A DNA stretch of 64,000 nucleotides from positions 416,001 to 480,000 of the forward strand of contig CAVOJR010000001.1 in assembly GCA_963696295.1 (NCBI GenBank), given 5' to 3'. Positions 31,568-53,092 of this stretch are shown piece after piece. How positions within the stretch are numbered: the first letter of the stretch is position 1; the number at the start of each line of letters is the position of its first letter. The position numbers were made by a program, and so were the translations under genes. The notes below the pieces were generated by a model. It made no database searches, had not been told where the DNA came from, and saw only the letters and a list, made by a program, of their open reading frames with translations. The stretch is from an uncultured Chlamydiae bacterium. Lineage in GTDB: Bacteria; Chlamydiota; Chlamydiia; Chlamydiales; JAJFMB01.

Positions 31568-32819
31568 ATTTTTTTGTCGGATACCCCGGAATTTTTTGGG
31601 GTATCTGAATTATCGCCTCGTAAATTCGCTCCAATTGCTCATCGGTGATGCAATAGGGAGGTATCAAATAGAGCACATTGCCAAGGGGCCTGATCAACAC
31701 GCCCCGCTCCAAAAAATAACCCCTTAGATCAAAATTATCAGCGGCTTCCATGGCGACAATGGTTCCGCATACGCGAACCTTTTGAAACTGAGCTGTCAGG
31801 GCCTCCAGATAGGGCTGATGCCTTTTTTCCATTCCTTTAAAGCAGGCAGGATCTTTCTCTAAAAGATCCATCGTCGCTATGGCGGCGGCGCATCCCAAAG
31901 GATTAGCCGTGTAGGAGTGGCCATGATAAAACGTGCGGGCGGCGTTATCACTGCAAAAAGCCTCATAAATCTCATCGGTGCAGACAGTCGCAGCCAGGGG
32001 CAAAAACCCCCCCGTAATCCCTTTCGCTAGACAGATCAGATCGGGTTTTGTTCCCGATTTCACGCAGGCAAACCAGTCTCCGGTGCGCCCAAAGCCGGTC
32101 ATCACCTCATCATAAATGAGCAGGGTGCGATATTTTCTTACAAGCGCTTCCAGTTTTTGTAAAAAAACCGGCCGGCACATCTGCATGCCGGATACCCCTT
32201 GCACCAGGGGCTCGATCAAAACAGCCACATGATTTTCCCGCGACAGCTCCTCTTCCACTCTGAGAAGGACGGCGTTCTCCCTCTCCTCAACCGTCAAATC
32301 GCCCGGAAAAGTGGCGGGATAGGGCAGCGATGTTTTGCTGAAGAGCAGCTTTTCAAATGTCCGGAAAAAGACCGGCTGGTTGCCAAGCGACATGGCGCCG
32401 ACCGTATCGCCATGGTAGGATCCCTCGAAGCAAAGAAATTTTTCCCTTGTTTCGCCCAGGTTGACAAAATACTGGTAGGCGATTTTAAGGGCCGCTTCCA
32501 CAGCGGTCGATCCATTGTCCGAATAAAATACTTTATTTAAGGATTTTGGCAAACGGCGCAATAGTTTCTCCGCTAAAACCTCGGCAGGTTCATGCGTGAA
32601 GCCGGCAAAAATCACATGTTCCAATTTTTGCGACTGCTCGTAAATGGCGCGGCTGATTTCAGGATGGGAATGACCGAGAAGGTTAACCCACCAGCTTGAA
32701 ATGGCATCGATCACCTCGCGGCCATCCTCCAAAGTCAAGAGAGTCCCTTGGCCGCTTTTCACTTTGAGCGGAAGGGGAGCTGTTTTCATTTGTGTGAAGG
32801 GATACCATATATGATTCAT
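31560..32819 (-). CDS. bioA: Adenosylmethionine-8-amino-7-oxononanoate aminotransferase
   Basis: HIWYPFTQM, DAISSWWVN, SDNGSTAVE, DEVMTGFGRTG, HGHSYTANP. Confidence 0.97.
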   Translation of the reverse strand: MNHIWYPFTQMKTAPLPLKVKSGQGTLLTLEDGREVIDAISSWWVNLLGHSHPEISRAIYEQSQKLEHVIFAGFTHEPAEVLAEKLLRRLPKSLNKVFYSDNGSTAVEAALKIAYQYFVNLGETREKFLCFEGSYHGDTVGAMSLGNQPVFFRTFEKLLFSKTSLPYPATFPGDLTVEERENAVLLRVEEELSRENHVAVLIEPLVQGVSGMQMCRPVFLQKLEALVRKYRTLLIYDEVMTGFGRTGDWFACVKSGTKPDLICLAKGITGGFLPLAATVCTDEIYEAFCSDNAARTFYHGHSYTANPLGCAAAIATMDLLEKDPACFKGMEKRHQPYLEALTAQFQKVRVCGTIVAMEAADNFDLRGYFLERGVLIRPLGNVLYLIPPYCITDEQLERIYEAIIQIPQKIPGYPTKKFT

Positions 32820-44614: not shown

Positions 44615-44793
44615 GTGATGCTCCGGTAGAACGTCTGCATCCTATATGCTATATAAGAATTAAGCAACTGATTCTTTGGGTTTAATTGTATTTACATTGT
44701 CCACACTGCGCCATGCTCCTCCTTCCCCTTAAGCCCACAAAGAATTTGTTTTTATTAATTCGCAATAAATACATAATAAATTATAATTATATC

Positions 44794-46032
44794 ATGGATA
44801 TTCATTTTTCTATTGCTGATAAACAACAGCAAGTCCAATTGATTGAGGGCAGCGGCTCGCATAGCGTCGCAATCGGCGGCCGCCATTACACGCTTCTAGG
44901 AAGCGCTGAGGCCATTTGCTTCATCAAAGAGTGCCTTGTTCCGGCCGATTCACTAGAGCAGGCCGGCAAAGAACTAAAGGCCAGGATGTGGCTGCAGGGG
45001 GCCAAAGAGGTGAGTGTGACCACGACCCATGCGATCGGCCTCACAGTGCTTGGAAAAAATGAAGCCATTGACAAACAGGCCATTATCGGGGAAATTGCCA
45101 CCCTTTTTGAAACGAGCTATGTGGATGAAACCATCGGCAAACAATGCGCCGCCTACCTGAAAAAGCAACTGGCAGAGGGCGCCTATGAGGGCATTACCGA
45201 CGGCGATGTCTTTACACAGGCGATTACGGCCGACTTGCGCCATATCGCGGAAGATAAGCATATCGTTTTATATGTCAGTAGCGAGGAAGCGGCTCCGGAG
45301 CAGGCTGTGGAGCGGTATCAAAGCCCGGAACTCACACACCCCTTTACCTTTAAGGGCTCCGAGGAAGGGTTGATGGGCGCTTCTCCCGATGAATTTCCCT
45401 ACGAAATCCGCTCCGGTTTTATCGAGGAAAAAACCGGGTATATCGATCTGCGCCTCTTTGGCACCACCCGTACAGAGAGCGCCGACTCCAGAGCGCGCCG
45501 CCACGCGATCATCGATGCGGTGCACAATATACAAGGCGCTGAAACGGTGATAGTAGACTTGCGAAACAACGGAGGGGGCGATCCGGCCACAGTCCAGCTG
45601 CTCTGCAGCCTCTTTATCGAGGAAGGGCTTCCCCTCAATACGATTCAATACCGCGGAGAGCCGCTGCAAGAATTTGCCACCCTTTCCCATCAAGAGCTCC
45701 CCTTAGAACAGCGGCTCACAGCCGCCAATCTGTTTGTGCTCATCGGCCCCCGTACTTTTTCCGCGGCCGAAGAGTTCACCAATAATATCAAAGTGCTGAA
45801 TAGAGGAAGAGTGGTCGGCGAGCCCTCGGGCGGCGGCGCCAATCCCGGCACAACGCGCCAGGTTGGCGAGGGAGACAAATTCGTCCTCTTTATCCCCACA
45901 GGCAGGGCGGTCAATCCGATTCAGGGAGGAAACTGGGAGGGGGTCGGCATCATACCAGACCAGATGGCGCCGGCCGAAGAGGCGTTAGAGGTGGCTCTTA
46001 AGCTGCGCAAACATACTCCACTTGATACATAA
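44794..46032 (+). CDS. S41-family peptidase (IRBP-like) with an N-terminal extension
   Basis: DKHIVL, VDLRNNGGG, TFSAAEEF, GEPSGGGANP, NWEGVGIIPD. Confidence 0.9.
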   Translation: MDIHFSIADKQQQVQLIEGSGSHSVAIGGRHYTLLGSAEAICFIKECLVPADSLEQAGKELKARMWLQGAKEVSVTTTHAIGLTVLGKNEAIDKQAIIGEIATLFETSYVDETIGKQCAAYLKKQLAEGAYEGITDGDVFTQAITADLRHIAEDKHIVLYVSSEEAAPEQAVERYQSPELTHPFTFKGSEEGLMGASPDEFPYEIRSGFIEEKTGYIDLRLFGTTRTESADSRARRHAIIDAVHNIQGAETVIVDLRNNGGGDPATVQLLCSLFIEEGLPLNTIQYRGEPLQEFATLSHQELPLEQRLTAANLFVLIGPRTFSAAEEFTNNIKVLNRGRVVGEPSGGGANPGTTRQVGEGDKFVLFIPTGRAVNPIQGGNWEGVGIIPDQMAPAEEALEVALKLRKHTPLDT

Positions 46033-46080
46033 ATGGATTATTGGTAGTGTAATCCGTTTGTGTTTTTAAAGGAGGAATTT

Positions 46081-46695
46081 ATGAGTTTAGCCATTCAAAG
46101 ACCCGCGATGTGTATTGTTCTTTCAGGCCTGCCTTGCACTGGAAAATCAACTTGGTCCGACAGATTTATCGCAAAATCAAAATTAAACGGCTTATCTGTA
46201 AGAGTGATTTCTTCAGACACCATCTCCTATCAAATTTGTGATGAATACAATAAGCATAACAGGGAACAACTTAATTATGCCACCGTTTGGAATCATCATC
46301 GCCAGGAAATAGAGGACAAATACCAATCAGAGATCGATCAGGTAAAAGCCGGAAATAACGTTGATGTGGTTATTTTTGATCGCACCTACACCACCATCGA
46401 AGCGCGCGCCAAAGCCCTGCAATTAGCCAATGGGATTCAAAGGGTGCATTTGCTTTCCATGCAAATTCTAAATGAGACATCATGGAATAATAATTTGCTT
46501 GAGAGAAACAAGAATTTGCCAAATAAAACAATTACCCAGGCAATCCTTGATAAATTAAAGAGTGGAGCGACTCCCCCTGCTGAAACAGAAGGATTTCATT
46601 CAATTGTCAGGTGCCCGGCCATTGGAGAACCGGGATGGGAAAATGTGTTTGAAAGTTCCATTGATGAGATGATTAAAAATGCTATGAACAACTGA
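46081..46695 (+). CDS. P-loop kinase (AAA_33/PNK-like)
   Basis: GLPCTGKST, ISSD, VIFDRT, PPAETEGF; AGGAGG RBS. Confidence 0.82.
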   Translation: MSLAIQRPAMCIVLSGLPCTGKSTWSDRFIAKSKLNGLSVRVISSDTISYQICDEYNKHNREQLNYATVWNHHRQEIEDKYQSEIDQVKAGNNVDVVIFDRTYTTIEARAKALQLANGIQRVHLLSMQILNETSWNNNLLERNKNLPNKTITQAILDKLKSGATPPAETEGFHSIVRCPAIGEPGWENVFESSIDEMIKNAMNN

Positions 46696-46868
46696 CCGGT
46701 TTTTGCTTTGGAGGAGTGCTTGCTGTTTCGACGGAGATTAGGGCTTTGCGTGATCCATCGCTCGGCAATACTTTAATAGAAAATAAAGGATTTTCTTGTT
46801 TTTTCATAAATGTCTCCATTGTTAAAACAAGTAATTATAACAAAAAACAACGCAAGTGTAAACAAATA

Positions 46869-48062
46869 ATGAATAGAATTGCAAACAGTTTTCTGAAGAA
46901 CGATCTCTTTGGGAGCGCAAAGGTACACCCTTTCGACCATATTATCATAGGCGGAGGGTTGATGGGCAGCTCTGCTCTCTATCAATTGGCCAACCGCCTG
47001 GCACAAAAAATCCTTTTACTGGATGGGGGAGGCTATGACAAACCCGTCGGAGCAAGCCAGGGTTTTGCGCGAATTACCGGCCGGCTGACAGGCAGCGAGT
47101 GCAATGCCTATTTTCAAACCGTGCCAAGATCGAACGAAATCTATGCCGGTCTGGAACAAAAGGGGCATTATTTCTATTCAGCAGCCCCCTGCGTTACCAT
47201 AGCAAAAGCCGAAAATCCGGGTATGGCGACCGTGCTTGAGCAGTGTCAAAATCACCGCATACCCCATATTCACTTCCGAAGGGGCGAGGCTAAAAACCAT
47301 GAAGCTTTAACGGGCGTTGATGTGCAGGATAACGATGTCGTGGTTGAAGTGGTCACAGCAAATAACCGCCTGGGGTTATTGGATCCCAGCGCTTTGCGGA
47401 ACGCCTTCCTGATCGAAGCCAAAAAACAGGGAGCCAAAACCCTGTTTGGGCAGCGCGTCACCCGGTGCACCCCCATGGAAGGGAGCCGATGGTGCGTAGA
47501 GCTGGATAACGGCCTGAAATTTTCGACCCCCTCGCTCGCCGTGACTACCGGCATCGAAAATCCCGGATTAAGCCAGCTGAAAAAACCGATCAACCCTACC
47601 CGCGTTCCCCTCTTTTTTCTCCCCTTGAAAGAGGAGTCTAAGCTAAACGCATCCTATCTTGGCTTGAATAAAACAGGGGGTTTAGATTGGTTTGCCATGC
47701 CTGAGAGGCATAAAAGCATTCGCTGCTTAAAAGTCGGGATCCACGATTTGTCTCATCTTAGCGACGACACCCTGACCGATGAAGAATTTAGCCGAAAAGT
47801 CCAGGCAAATTTAATTCCTGTGATTCAAGAGATTTTTAGCAAACATCTCAAATCCCTCGAACTCGTCGGGCATTTGACCTGTTTTTACGACAACACCACG
47901 CGCGGCTACCCCTTTATCAAGCGGGAAAGCGTCGACGGACATTCCCTAGTCTACGCGGTTGGCTTTTGCGGAAATGGAGCGAAGCACGCCGGCTTTGTGG
48001 GCGAGGCCCTCGCCGACCTGATGCTCGGCCAAGAAAACCCATTAATTAAAGAATTTTCTTAA
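46869..48062 (+). CDS. FAD-dependent oxidoreductase (sarcosine/N-methyl-amino-acid oxidase-like)
   Basis: IIIGGGLMG, GASQGFARI, CFYDNT, GFCGNGAKH. Confidence 0.85.
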   Translation: MNRIANSFLKNDLFGSAKVHPFDHIIIGGGLMGSSALYQLANRLAQKILLLDGGGYDKPVGASQGFARITGRLTGSECNAYFQTVPRSNEIYAGLEQKGHYFYSAAPCVTIAKAENPGMATVLEQCQNHRIPHIHFRRGEAKNHEALTGVDVQDNDVVVEVVTANNRLGLLDPSALRNAFLIEAKKQGAKTLFGQRVTRCTPMEGSRWCVELDNGLKFSTPSLAVTTGIENPGLSQLKKPINPTRVPLFFLPLKEESKLNASYLGLNKTGGLDWFAMPERHKSIRCLKVGIHDLSHLSDDTLTDEEFSRKVQANLIPVIQEIFSKHLKSLELVGHLTCFYDNTTRGYPFIKRESVDGHSLVYAVGFCGNGAKHAGFVGEALADLMLGQENPLIKEFS

Positions 48063-48079
48063 ATCAAAGGAGAAGGAAA

Positions 48080-48904
48080 ATGAAATATTTCATACCTATG
48101 CTATTACTTTTTTCAACTGCAATTGCCTCTGCAGATGTCGAGTCAAACGTGAATAGGGAATGTGTCGTTCTCCTGTGCAATAAAGCATTTTTTCCAAAAT
48201 TTTTATATACTCTTAATTTACTTACAACTAATGGAAAATATCATGGAGATATTTGTCTAGTGATCGGTGATGACTTACTAGATAATAAATTGTTAAATGA
48301 TGACTTATTAAAAAACAACAACGTTATCATTAAACATTTTCCCGATTTGCAATTTCCACTAGATTTTATTGAAATGGCTAAGAATCTCGATCGCCCATTT
48401 TTTTGGTTTGAAAAACTATTTCAATATCATAAACTGCATTTATTTAACACGTACTTTAAAAAATGGGATACAATATTTTATATAGATTGCGGGGTGACGA
48501 TTTTTTCTGATATACGTCCCATCCTTAATACTAGAGAGCCTGATCTGTTATTGGCCCATTCAGATGCCTACCCAACTTATCAATGGAAATTGCATGTTCA
48601 ATTCGATAAATCAAAAGTAGACTTTTATAATAAATTGAATAGCAATTTCAATTTAAATATTGATTATTTTCAAACAACTTGCATGCTATACGATTCAAAT
48701 ATTATTGAAGAGAATACATTTGAAGATCTTTACAATTTAACTTTAACATATCCAATAAGTAGAACAAATGATCAAGGTATTATTTCTCTATATTTTACTA
48801 ATATAGTGCCAATATGGAAACAGATTCCCTTGAGAAATGAAAACACCTTCTTTTACGATTATATGAAAAGAGGTAATGACAAATACATCATGACAAAAAT
48901 GTAG
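48080..48904 (+). CDS. GT8-like (GT-A fold) glycosyltransferase with a signal peptide; AT-rich gene
   Basis: KLHLF, IFYIDCG, YFQT, NDQGII. Confidence 0.7.
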   Translation: MKYFIPMLLLFSTAIASADVESNVNRECVVLLCNKAFFPKFLYTLNLLTTNGKYHGDICLVIGDDLLDNKLLNDDLLKNNNVIIKHFPDLQFPLDFIEMAKNLDRPFFWFEKLFQYHKLHLFNTYFKKWDTIFYIDCGVTIFSDIRPILNTREPDLLLAHSDAYPTYQWKLHVQFDKSKVDFYNKLNSNFNLNIDYFQTTCMLYDSNIIEENTFEDLYNLTLTYPISRTNDQGIISLYFTNIVPIWKQIPLRNENTFFYDYMKRGNDKYIMTKM

Positions 48905-49294: not shown

Positions 49295-49555
49295 ATGCCA
49301 TCAACACAAGTAGCTATAATTAATGCCAAAATCAAGGAAGTAAACGATTACCTCGACAGTGTAGAACGCGATTTGGCTAAGAGACAGCCGGGTGAGGCGC
49401 CAAAAATGAAAAACAGCATGCTTATGATGCTTGAAGACTGCATCATTGAATTGACAGAGCTCAAGCGAAATGCGTCACCGGAAGATCAGACATCAATCGC
49501 TCCTGTGATCGACAAAGCGAAGGGTTTGGAATCCAATTTAAAAAGCAGAAAATAA
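49295..49555 (+). CDS. Small helical hypothetical protein
   Basis: AGGAG RBS; TTGACT-N17-CATACT promoter at 49232-49260; 86 aa. Confidence 0.7.
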   Translation: MPSTQVAIINAKIKEVNDYLDSVERDLAKRQPGEAPKMKNSMLMMLEDCIIELTELKRNASPEDQTSIAPVIDKAKGLESNLKSRK

Positions 49556-50131
49556 CATTTGCTTCAGGGCGTCTTGATCTAAGGGAGAATGAGGCTCAAT
49601 CTCCCTTACTTTCACATTGCCGAAATGCTCTATGGCCTGTTTGTTCGATTCATTCTTTGGACCATTGAGGATCACCCCCGCAACCGGTATTTGACGGGAG
49701 CGCAGCCCTGAGAGGGTCAGGAGGGTGTGATTGAGGGTGCCAAGCGCACTGCGGGCAACAATCAGCACGGGAAGATTTAACTGCTCGATCAGATCGATCA
49801 TCAAATCCTTTTCATTTAAGGGCACGAGGATGCCGCCGGCCCCCTCTACAATGATAGGCTCAAGCGGGGGGAGTATGATTTTTGACAAAGAGATCGAGAT
49901 CCCCTCAAGCTTGGCGGCAGCGTGGGGAGAAAGGGGCGCTTTCAGCCGGTAAGCTTCCGGAAGAAAGGCGCAGCCGGTCATCGTTTTGACCCACTCAGTA
50001 TCTGTACAGGGTTCGAGGCCGGCCTGGATCGGCTTCCAATAAGTGCCTTTTAAACTGAGTGTGAGGGCTGCCGAGATAACCGTTTTGCCAACGCCGGTGT
50101 CGGTGCCTGTTACGAAATACCCTTTTACCAT
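49538..50131 (-). CDS. bioD: Dethiobiotin synthase
   Basis: FVTGTDTGVGKT, KPIQAG, VEGAGG, LGTLNHTLL. Confidence 0.96.
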   Translation of the reverse strand: MVKGYFVTGTDTGVGKTVISAALTLSLKGTYWKPIQAGLEPCTDTEWVKTMTGCAFLPEAYRLKAPLSPHAAAKLEGISISLSKIILPPLEPIIVEGAGGILVPLNEKDLMIDLIEQLNLPVLIVARSALGTLNHTLLTLSGLRSRQIPVAGVILNGPKNESNKQAIEHFGNVKVREIEPHSPLDQDALKQMLFSAF

Positions 50132-50880
50132 TTTTGCATGGCCGCATAGGCTATGTTATAGGTGATCCCCACGCCAAGGGGCGATTGCTCATCCCAGTAG
50201 TTTAGCAGCTGCCGCATTTGGGAGGGGGAAAGGCTCTTCTTTTTTAAAGCTGTGTTCGCACCGATCCGCTTAAAACCCTTTAAGCACTGCAACGCGTTGG
50301 GATAAATCAGCGTAATCCTCTTTTCCCAAAGGTGATAGGAAGTAGAAATGGGGCGAAGATCGGTTACGAGGGGAAAATCATTGCCGGTATAAGGAAGATT
50401 GAGATCGCAGCACGCCTGCTGCCACTCTGGAAAGCTTTTGTCTTCCAGGAAGGAAAAAAGCAGGAGGCCGCCGGGCTTCAAACCTTCATAGAGCTTCTGA
50501 ACGCTAGCCTGAAAATCGCGAAACCATTGAAAAACTAGTCCCGAAACAATCAGGGCGAACTTATTCTCCTCATAAAAATCCTCCCCGTCCAATAAGGAAA
50601 AATTGAGTTTTTCGCCGTTTACATTCGAGCGGCACTTTTCAAGCATGGTAGGGCAGATATCGGTGATGATCTTCTGCCGGTCAGGAAACGAGCTGCAGAG
50701 CTCTTTAGTGATAAATCCGGTTCCGCAGCCGATCTCGAGAATGGGTCCGGAAGGCAGCCTGTCCAGTTGGTGAAAATATTTCCCAAGAGTTTTAGCGGCA
50801 ACTCCTTGCACATAAGCTTCCCTGTCATAGTTTTGAGAGCCCTTCGAAAAACTCTGGATAATTTGCTCGGCTATAGCCAT
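50125..50880 (-). CDS. bioC: Malonyl-ACP O-methyltransferase
   Basis: FSKGSQNYD..A.VQ, ILEIGCGTG, FQWF; position in the bio operon. Confidence 0.9.
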   Translation of the reverse strand: MAIAEQIIQSFSKGSQNYDREAYVQGVAAKTLGKYFHQLDRLPSGPILEIGCGTGFITKELCSSFPDRQKIITDICPTMLEKCRSNVNGEKLNFSLLDGEDFYEENKFALIVSGLVFQWFRDFQASVQKLYEGLKPGGLLLFSFLEDKSFPEWQQACCDLNLPYTGNDFPLVTDLRPISTSYHLWEKRITLIYPNALQCLKGFKRIGANTALKKKSLSPSQMRQLLNYWDEQSPLGVGITYNIAYAAMQKW

Positions 50881-51611
50881 CTTTTAACCCATTGAAAGCA
50901 TTCAGTCGCATTCACTATCGGCAGGGCGTGAGTCCCGCCATCTAGAGTAATGAGTTTACTATTGGGTAGTAAACTTTGCAACTCAATTGCTTTTTCAAGG
51001 GGCGCGATTTGATCTTCTGTTCCATGCAATAACAGTATTTCCGGAATTATTTTGAGGCGCTCTATATCTAATATACTGTTATTCAAAGAGTTTAAATCTT
51101 GGATCAGGAGAGGCAGATTAGCCTTGTTCACTTCTCCGGGCAGAAATACAACAGCTGGCGAAGAGGGAATAGCTTTGAATTTAGCCGAGGAGCCAGATGT
51201 TGTAGATAGAGCTTGAAAACTGACCGAAGATGTGAACAAGGCCGGCAGATTTATGTCCTTTGCCGCTTTCTCTTCCAGGCCGCAATCCCGGTAAAACTGT
51301 GTTAAGGTGCCCTCTGGATGGGTTTTTAAGCCTTTCATCAGCCAGGCGAGGTAGGCTTTTGTATTTTGTTTGCCGTGAATATGGACGAACCCGCCGATAA
51401 TGACTAACTTTTTTATCCGGCTAAGTTCGGCTTGTGCGAGCATGTGCAGGCCATAGGAATGGGTGATGACGAGGCAATTTTCAAGATCGCAAAGAGGAAT
51501 TGGAGTTTTAAAATAGCCCCGGTCGAAAAAATGAGAATTGGGTATAGACCCTTTCCAGCCGGTCCAACACTCCGGGCCAAATCCCCATCCATGCAAAAAA
51601 ACCCAATGCAT
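50871..51611 (-). CDS. bioH: Pimeloyl-ACP methyl ester esterase (BioH/BioG-like) carrying a 44-aa in-frame insertion
   Basis: FLHGWG, HSYG, HGTEDQIAP, GTHALP; between bioF and bioC. Confidence 0.8.
   Translation of the reverse strand: MHWVFLHGWGFGPECWTGWKGSIPNSHFFDRGYFKTPIPLCDLENCLVITHSYGLHMLAQAELSRIKKLVIIGGFVHIHGKQNTKAYLAWLMKGLKTHPEGTLTQFYRDCGLEEKAAKDINLPALFTSSVSFQALSTTSGSSAKFKAIPSSPAVVFLPGEVNKANLPLLIQDLNSLNNSILDIERLKIIPEILLLHGTEDQIAPLEKAIELQSLLPNSKLITLDGGTHALPIVNATECFQWVKRWL
51112..51251. mobile_element. Miniature palindromic element inserted in frame in bioH
   Basis: Terminal IR GCCTTGTTCAC (51121-51131 / 51232-51242, extends to 20/23); inner IR TACAACAGCTGGC/GCCAGATGTTGTA; GGCAGATT duplicated at 51112 and 51244, 132 bp apart. 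Confidence 0.85.
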
Positions 51612-51614
51612 CGA

Positions 51615-52709
51615 TCAACCTATCAGCGCGAGGTGTTCTTCCGTGTGCTCCGCGGTCAATGAGAGGCGGACTCTCGATTGCCCCTTCGCTACGGTGGGCG
51701 GGCGAATGGCGGGGGCAAAGCATCCCCGCTCAAACAACCGGCTCTCCAGGTCAAGCGCTTGTTCCTCGGAACCGACAATGAGGGGGATAATATGCGAGGC
51801 GCTGCAGCCAATATCGATCCCAAGAGTTTGCAGTTTCTGACGAAAGAGGGAAGCCGTTTGCTCCAGATGGCTCCGCTCCTTATCCATGGCGGGTATCAAG
51901 TCTAAAGCCGCGTCCACAGCCCCGACGATGGGCGGCGGCAAAGCGGTGCTGTAGATCAGTCCGCCGCACTTTTGAATGAGCAAATCGCAAACAGGGCGGG
52001 AACAGAGGATATAAGCGCCGAAGCTTCCGAAGGCTTTGCCAAAGGTGCCTAGGACAAGATCGATTCCGGCACCGGCCGTCAAACCAAGTCCTTTTGGACC
52101 CAGGACGCCGACGGCATGGGCGTCGTCGACATAAAGAAAAGCCCCATATTCCGCTGCGAGGGATTTTAAATCTGTTAAAGGGGTGATATCTCCATCCATG
52201 CTAAAGAGCGATTCGGTCACGATCACTTTCTTTTTATAAGGGGAGTCCTTTAAATATTTTTTTAGCTGATCAAAATCCTGATGGGCAAAGCGGAGAAGGC
52301 GCCCCTGGCTTAACCTGGCCCCTTGCACCAAACTGTGATGGCAATGGCGGTCCATGACGATTAAGGTGTCGCGGTCTGCCAAGGCCGAAAGTATGCTGAT
52401 ATTGGCCTGGTAGCCGGTATTCATCAAAAGGGCGCACTCATAGCCCATCATGGCGGCCAAGCGCTTTTCCAGCTGATCGTGATAGATATGGCTGCCTGAG
52501 ACCAGCCTGGAAGAGCCCGCGCCAACCCCGTATTGCTCGATATAGCGGATCGCCCGTTCTTTGAGACAGGGATGGTTTTTCAATCCCAAATAATCATTGC
52601 CGGCGAAGTTGATCACTGTCTTACCCTGCCAGAGAAGTGAAAGCTCCGAACCGGGAACGAGGGTTTTTAAAGTTCTTTTCAGGTTAGGAGAGATTGAACT
52701 TCGGAACAT
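51615..52709 (-). CDS. bioF: 8-amino-7-oxononanoate synthase
   Basis: NDYLGL, GSSRLVSG, ESLFSMDGD, VDDAHAVG, GTFGKAFG, IRPPTV. Confidence 0.96.
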   Translation of the reverse strand: MFRSSISPNLKRTLKTLVPGSELSLLWQGKTVINFAGNDYLGLKNHPCLKERAIRYIEQYGVGAGSSRLVSGSHIYHDQLEKRLAAMMGYECALLMNTGYQANISILSALADRDTLIVMDRHCHHSLVQGARLSQGRLLRFAHQDFDQLKKYLKDSPYKKKVIVTESLFSMDGDITPLTDLKSLAAEYGAFLYVDDAHAVGVLGPKGLGLTAGAGIDLVLGTFGKAFGSFGAYILCSRPVCDLLIQKCGGLIYSTALPPPIVGAVDAALDLIPAMDKERSHLEQTASLFRQKLQTLGIDIGCSASHIIPLIVGSEEQALDLESRLFERGCFAPAIRPPTVAKGQSRVRLSLTAEHTEEHLALIG

Positions 52710-53092
52710 ATCTTGAGCGCCTCTTTGAATGTGATCAGATCCATTGCCTCGGATAGGGAAGCCCATTTGCCTTCAGCGAGTTCTTCCATTTGGAGTTTCA
52801 CATCTCCCTCGGCCTCAGCCATAAAGTAGGTTACCCGTTTTTTTATGACCGTTTCATCGCTTTTACGGAAAATATAGTATTCCTCCAACTCTTTGAAGGG
52901 GAGAAATTGCACGACCGACAAACCGGTTTCTTCAAAAAGCTCCCGCTTAGCGGTCTCTTGAGGGGTTTCGGAGCCGTCTTGGTGCCCTTTGGGAAAACTC
53001 CAGTGCCCGGCTCGGTGCTGAATGAGGAAAACCTGCCAGCATCCCTGGAAGCGTCGAAGGGGGATAATCCCAAAGGAATGTTCATGCTGCAT
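52679..53092 (-). CDS. NUDIX hydrolase (Ap4A hydrolase-like)
   Basis: WSFPKGH.....TAKRELFEETG Nudix box. Confidence 0.92.
   Translation of the reverse strand: MQHEHSFGIIPLRRFQGCWQVFLIQHRAGHWSFPKGHQDGSETPQETAKRELFEETGLSVVQFLPFKELEEYYIFRKSDETVIKKRVTYFMAEAEGDVKLQMEELAEGKWASLSEAMDLITFKEALKICSEVQSLLT

Follow-up and report, generated by a model that had tools for sequence, protein, structure and literature searches.

An in-frame MITE insertion in a BioH-like gene of an uncultured chlamydial bacterium and a DUF6399 insertion sequence as its candidate driver

The window analyzed here, the whole stretch of 64,000 nucleotides of DNA from an uncultured Chlamydiae bacterium, contains a BioH-like hydrolase gene whose reading frame runs through a palindromic segment flanked by a repeated 8-mer. 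We asked what this segment is, what could have moved it, and how the gene has accommodated it. The features concerned are summarized in Table 1.

The direct repeat GGCAGATT was found on both sides of the segment at a spacing of 132 bp, exactly as an earlier note on this DNA had claimed, and the two 8-mers enclose an element of exactly 124 bp. By simple arithmetic, an exact 8-mer at both junctions is expected by chance about once in 65,000 for a given pair of ends. The arms (51121–51143 and 51220–51242) form an inverted repeat in which 20 of 23 positions are paired. The earlier note had described an 11-bp terminal repeat extending to 20/23; the extension was recovered, whereas the true terminus lies one base further out. 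The family end is GGCCTTGTTCAC, and at 51120 the window copy has A instead of G. The inner inverted repeat that had also been described was found with 12 of 13 positions matching. On the mRNA strand, the insert folds with −49.7 kcal/mol (z = −6.2), and none of 200 shuffled sequences was equally stable. Compared with the 160-bp master, the window copy has lost one piece of 12 bp and one of 24 bp, each from a different hairpin arm, and 44 codons are left. With terminal inverted repeats paired at 20/23, a duplication matching at 8/8, dispersed copies, an empty orthologous site and no transposase of its own, the insert is, with very high confidence, a genuine MITE insertion.

Table 1. Coordinates of the insert, its parts and the neighboring bio genes in the window
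Feature	Position	Strand	Basis
124-bp MITE, trimmed internally relative to the 160-bp master; its mRNA strand is translated in the frame that is open in the family	51120..51243	-	
8-bp target-site duplication, second copy on the mRNA (Asn165-Leu166-Pro167)	51112..51119	.	
8-bp target-site duplication, first copy on the mRNA (Asn121-Leu122-Pro123)	51244..51251	.	
Terminal inverted repeat that is similar to the left terminus of the DUF6399 IS, with A in place of the outermost G	51120..51145	+	
Terminal inverted repeat, identical to the right terminus of the DUF6399 IS at 23/26 bases	51218..51243	-	
Inner inverted repeat with arms 51147-51159 and 51192-51204; what is left of a stem showing covariation between lineages	51147..51204	.	
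Central hairpin core, worn copy; the core also occurs in repeat families of this genome with other ends	51157..51194	-	
Internal deletion junction, 24 bp (8 codons) relative to the 160-bp master	51145..51146	.	alignment
Internal deletion junction (+/-2), 12 bp (4 codons) relative to the 160-bp master	51210..51211	.	alignment
Alpha/beta hydrolase, BioH-like; 246 aa with and 202 aa without the insert; S52, D200 and H228 invariant	50871..51611	-	
bioF, upstream in the operon	51615..52766	-	
bioC, overlapping the end of the hydrolase gene	50125..50880	-	
bioD	49538..50131	-	
bioA match without internal stop (G000:C1:447605-448810; G000 is the window's genome); rest of the pathway intact	31605..32810	-	

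Copies of the family and their reading frames

Ten copies or fragments with these ends, each with private deletions, were found in the window's genome (G000), and three of them keep both ends and the duplication with at most one mismatch. With the MITE as DNA query, matches were obtained in 16 of the 400 genomes searched in the phylum, and fresh copies with different 8-bp flanks were detected in other chlamydial families. The chlamydial MITE family that the earlier note had proposed was accordingly recovered as a set of dispersed copies bounded by terminal inverted repeats, with 8-bp duplications of varying sequence; we call it chlamydial because the named records with repeated matches were mostly Chlamydiae. 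The exact end 14-mer occurred at least 8 times in 7 of 401 genomes (maximum of 251, in the relative G266), and a reversed control never occurred more than 4 times. No MITE copies were found in the plasmid and viral collections, and an exact 20-mer of the window copy had no match in the genome contig collection.

The full-length member of the family is 160 bp, which together with the 8-bp duplication amounts to 56 codons. In G266, 99 paired copies were counted; 85 were 160 bp in length and 81 had a perfect 8-bp duplication. This census covered 1.10 Mb in 60 stretches chosen around ends among the matches listed, corresponding to about 28% of the genome. The interior stem covaries across lineages at 25 of 62 pairs (8 sequences).

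Several other features of these ends were observed. Many unrelated interiors of 55–433 bp carry the same ends, mostly with 8-bp duplications, in different chlamydial genomes (loci L015, L017, L020, L021, L049, L056, L063 and L110). Nesting was also seen, with MITEs lying inside their own ends, inside other MITEs or inside other transposase genes (L013, that is, G266:C1:130119-130342, L157 and L201), and a 733-bp pair of ends in L102, considered as one element, turned out to be two MITEs. In element orientation, the interior of the target 8-mers in G266 is rich in T; the first base is C in 39/81 and the eighth is G in 41/81. By GC skew, 8 of the 10 copies in G000 are oriented one way, which is too few for a claim; strand bias in G266 was rejected as a test because its stretches came from ends listed unevenly by strand.

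The description of the family as coding-tolerated was supported only in part. In G266, a long coding register, stop-free on both flanks, was found for 10 of 84 copies, compared with 971 of 1500 random positions (65%), and four of these 10 coding copies read through, with the other six breaking the frame with stops. The 84 copies are those whose duplication could be used; a further one, located where an RHS-repeat gene is broken, was set aside. The register rule was a crude one, applied without gene calls, that missed one short in-frame case. According to the census, coding insertions have been lost to a large extent, and reading through is not overrepresented among those left.

In G000, where the family is worn, the remaining internal coding copies are all in frame: two of the 10 copies are internal (in the BioH-like gene and in putA), and three more lie at gene ends. 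The putA copy (G000:C1:1562457-1562556, L240) is worn, 100 bp in length and flanked by a duplication matching at 7/8, and it is in frame on the opposite element strand; PutA with the MITE is 32 aa longer than all seven aligned orthologs. Another copy, of 76 bp (G000:C1:894659-894734), is in frame where a probable HTH regulator gene ends; its right duplicate carries a TAC>TAA change that provides the stop, and the element supplies the last 25 residues. An element remnant (G000:C1:495766-495805) accounts for the final residues of a gyrase/topoisomerase B-type subunit, so labeled from its sequence, at the junction with the next gene.

These cases raise the possibility that the family itself has been shaped for translation, as RPEs might be, with its 160 + 8 length and two open frames under selection through read-through survivors. 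Consistent with this, 13 of 14 near-full-length copies, which represent five lineages (67–82% identical), have no stop in the frame used in the window, the same holds for the mirror frame on the other strand, and three different element frames are used in real coding insertions (the BioH-like gene, putA and G266 genes). However, both frames were open in 5–17% of shuffles per lineage and in 24% and 28% of the trials with redistributed substitutions, and selection for open frames was not significant in either test, the lineages being related. Moreover, a frame-keeping length was found in only four of seven sister MITEs with the same ends, most copies lie outside genes, and the covarying hairpin may hold the length instead. 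We regard a family shaped for translation as unlikely. The simplest reading is that tolerance reflects geometry and filtering, that is, a frame-keeping length, two or three of six frames open, and survival only in loops or tails.

The BioH-like host gene

The ORF of the host gene stays open across the insert, and at the insert site the 246-aa protein exceeds five homologs by 44, 44, 45, 39 and 39 residues. The in-frame gain of 44 aa that had been reported therefore agrees with the alignment, in which all five homologs are shorter by a gap of 39–45 residues. Of these homologs, three were taken from the protein collection and two from genomes of relatives, where matches were obtained in 5 of 40; three weaker BioH-like matches (G014, G019 and G030) were left out of the alignment. 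The length at the site varies by at most 6 residues among the homologs, and the esterase 5frd has 7 additional residues there. From the alignments and general knowledge of the fold, the insert site is predicted to fall in a cap-domain loop whose length varies. Three low-share DNA read runs left the junctions of the insert uncovered.

The gene order bioF, hydrolase, bioC and bioD is the same in the relative G001, and bioA and bioB are intact in the window's genome. In another relative (G008, L003), a single 478-aa ORF, located between bioF and bioD, encodes a BioH-like domain together with BioC as a fusion. Downstream of the bio genes, on the opposite strand (44686–48904), the window encodes an S41 peptidase, an AAA_33 kinase-like protein, an FAD oxidoreductase and a 274-aa protein without a Pfam match.

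The Ser-Asp-His triad (S52, D200 and H228) is invariant in the homolog alignment, and the other invariant columns are kept as well. On the BioH model (TIGR01738), the hydrolase scored 24 bits and missed the curated cut-off of 207 bits; the model gave 15 other matches elsewhere in the genome, and 11 other hydrolases outscored the window protein. A profile of the insert-free homologs matched solved BioH chains over their full length (E = 4e-6 to 3e-5). The name bioH used in the earlier note was supported by the operon context and the triad, but not by the BioH model, and because of its 24/207 bits despite the profile match to solved BioH chains, we call the gene BioH-like. The protein resembles BioH (E. 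coli 1m33 and 4etw; 6k5e) in the full-length profile match, the Ser-Asp-His triad and the place between bioF and bioC. The nucleophile motif of BioH is G-x-S-x-G; the window protein differs in having H-S-Y-G in its place, a length of about 200 aa and a short cap.

The same element, moved by the same transposase, might instead have inactivated or crippled the enzyme, leaving a young pseudogene with an accidentally open frame while another hydrolase or host biotin covers its role. Some lineages have three of the six frames open, the proportion of read-through among the G266 coding copies is that of chance, and the 15 other BioH-model matches offer substitutes; the insert is near-identical to its sister copies where they overlap and is thus not old, and its stable hairpin could hinder translation. 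Against such a loss, the triad and all other invariant columns are kept, the 246 codons contain no stop or frameshift, both private deletions comprise whole codons (which, for this net frame, would happen by chance in one of three cases), bioF, bioC, bioD, bioA and bioB are intact, and BioY was looked for in the window's genome and not found. No rate increase was observed, since the hydrolase is 58–60% identical to two homologs that share 59% mutually; the copy differs little from sister copies and is therefore perhaps too young for relaxed selection to show. We consider a pseudogene improbable, and the long 246-aa allele is probably still functional. The insert likely survived in the gene because the frame was kept and the predicted cap loop is variable in length.

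A DUF6399 insertion sequence as candidate driver

Starting from an unpaired MITE end, we located in G266 a 1,883-bp IS (L201:3801-5683) with MITE-type ends (GGCCTTATTCACCTTT.../GGCCTTGTTCACCTTTTCGGTCA), a perfect 8-bp duplication (CTCAAAGG) on both flanks and one 559-aa ORF, whose sole Pfam label is DUF6399 (E = 2.7e-41). An IS with the same ends, for which the earlier note had proposed to look, is thus present in G266 and has no counterpart in the window's own genome. The G266 MITE and the IS are similar at their ends only (24/26 and 30/35 bases), and G266 is also the genome richest in MITE ends (251 exact 14-mers). The IS itself interrupts another transposase-like gene.

DUF6399 homologs were detected in 21 of 400 genomes, that is, in 4 of 7 MITE-rich genomes compared with 17 of 393 others (kin are not independent); G262, G185 and G102, three of the seven genomes richest in MITE ends and all fragmented, gave no match. 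GGCC-type ends were found at 14 of 30 DUF6399 loci, from 13 of the 21 genomes, with perfect 8-bp duplications at L202 and L213 and no duplication at L204, L215 and L231, where both ends are present. The DUF6399 copies scored in G132 have ends that differ from the MITE ends, and a copy on a Thiodictyon plasmid is bounded by GGCCTTGATCAT and flanked by a perfect 8-bp duplication. The end search found ends in neither of two cyanobacterial copies, and a metagenome scan with the transposase confirmed none of 141 candidates. A second DUF6399 subfamily in G132 (L210 and L225), with ends CGCCTGCTTTTCC and an 8-bp duplication, lies inside the palindromic center of a GGCTATT-ended MITE; MITEs with GGCTATT-type ends occur in G000 as well. 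A DUF6399 gene or remnant was searched for in G000 and not found, so the element would now be stranded there. A 32-bp segment (G000:C1:858047-858078) matches the left end of the DUF6399 IS at 28/32 positions without an adjoining transposase and is a possible relic of a lost driver. The DUF6399 IS is very probably the driver of the MITE.

The motif GGCCTTG resembles the end motifs of IS1595/ISPna2, IS1 and IS6. Despite this likeness and the presence of IS903-type transposases in the window's genome, it is highly implausible that a catalogued IS with 8-bp duplications and GG ends, or an IS903-type element, was the mover: the IS1595, IS6 and IS1 models each matched none of five carrier genomes, paired ends of the MITE type were found at none of 26 IS1595 loci (17 of 401 genomes), the IS903-type ends in the window's genome differ (GGCCTTTATGCA and GACTGTGTTGCA), and the DUF6399 element with matching ends largely refutes such a driver.

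Mutator, ISL3 or NCBIfam transposase models gave no match to DUF6399 proteins (sets of 1, 9 and 20), weak rve matches were found in 2 of 20 DUF6399 proteins, and a profile search of the DUF6399 protein against solved transposases gave no match. The nearest Atlas clusters include ISL3 (21% and 43%) and Mutator (49%) members. Residues D166, D221, H243 and E473 are invariant in all 101 sequences (the query and 100 from the best 150 of 1,627 matches), and D240 is present in at least 90%. In the available text of PMC3942029, prokaryotic Mutator-like enzymes (p-MULT) are defined by DDE, a C/D(2)H 11–19 residues after D2, and an insert of 99–138 aa. The DUF6399 protein resembles p-MULT (IS256/ISH6/ISLre2/ISKra4) in the D-D-E candidates D166, D221 and E473, in D240-x-x-H243 at 19 aa past D221, within the range given there, in its N-terminal HTH, and in the GG ends and 8-bp duplication of its element. 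However, D221 and E473 are 252 residues apart, compared with the 99–138-aa insert of that text, and DUF6399 did not match p-MULT models of Pfam or NCBIfam. The catalytic role of D166/D221/E473 is putative, and the protein is likely a Mutator/IS256/ISL3-like DDE transposase that does not qualify as a member of those families.

Taken as a whole, we consider it probable that the MITE was moved in trans by the predicted DDE transposase DUF6399 and was kept in the gene as an in-frame loop insert. The transposase would bind the TTTCGG(T/C)C sites that recur close to each end, the ends would be joined to target DNA cut with an 8-bp stagger, and filling in would yield the duplication. Most coding insertions would then be purged by selection, and read-through ones in loops or C-termini would stay, such as those in the BioH-like gene, putA and the regulator tail. 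The transposase would later have been lost from the window's genome, with copies only decaying since, and the 246-aa protein would still act as a pimeloyl-ACP methyl ester esterase.

Relation to known elements

An in-frame MITE within a gene is an already known kind of event. According to the available text of a review (PMC10969869), in-frame MITE fusions are not unusual and nearly half of RPEs lie in ORFs. As far as the accessible parts of the sources go, QMITE2 of Coxiella is 150–190 bp in length, with 7–11-nt direct repeats and some copies in frame (PMC5896051), and intragenic REPs and RPEs have been catalogued (PMC3733652). The chlamydial element resembles RPE-1 to RPE-3, as portrayed in the same parts of PMC10969869 and PMC3733652, in being a palindromic repeat of about 150 bp that is in frame in unrelated metabolic genes and adds a peptide. 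It differs in its terminal inverted repeats, 8-bp duplication and candidate transposase, and in that in-frame coding copies make up 4 of 84 in the fresh G266 expansion, compared with nearly half of RPEs in ORFs (PMC10969869, available text). With bacterial MITEs (QMITE2, Correia and RUP), it shares being non-coding, bounded by terminal inverted repeats, hairpin-forming and mostly intergenic, with target duplications and occasional in-frame fusions (for QMITE2, accessible part of PMC5896051); in contrast, the chlamydial MITE has other ends, has only its ends in common with the partner IS, and the partner lies outside the named transposase models. A chlamydial MITE is named in none of the available portions of PMC10969869, PMC5896051 and PMC3733652.

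Searches of the open-access literature found no paper on chlamydial MITEs, on this element or on DUF6399. NCBIfam contains RPE models. The insert peptide, in its one frame, gave 0 matches to NCBIfam and the insert gave 0 to Rfam, so that no tested family is common with RPEs.

It is doubtful, on balance, that DUF6399 represents uncatalogued and widespread Mutator-like transposases with an insertion domain of about 250 residues and, in addition, a 160-bp passenger tuned for translation as an RPE-style protein-grafting element. If the tuned-for-translation reading were true, the selectable BioH-like enzyme would provide a direct readout of tolerance. RPE-like entry into proteins has so far had no named enzyme, and here an insert is tied to a specific candidate transposase. 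The analysis also suggests a candidate function for DUF6399, a large family labeled as unknown (1,627 clusters at 50% identity) and missed by IS annotation. Because the BioH-like gene offers a simple growth test, both the movement of the element and its tolerance may be testable in E. coli.
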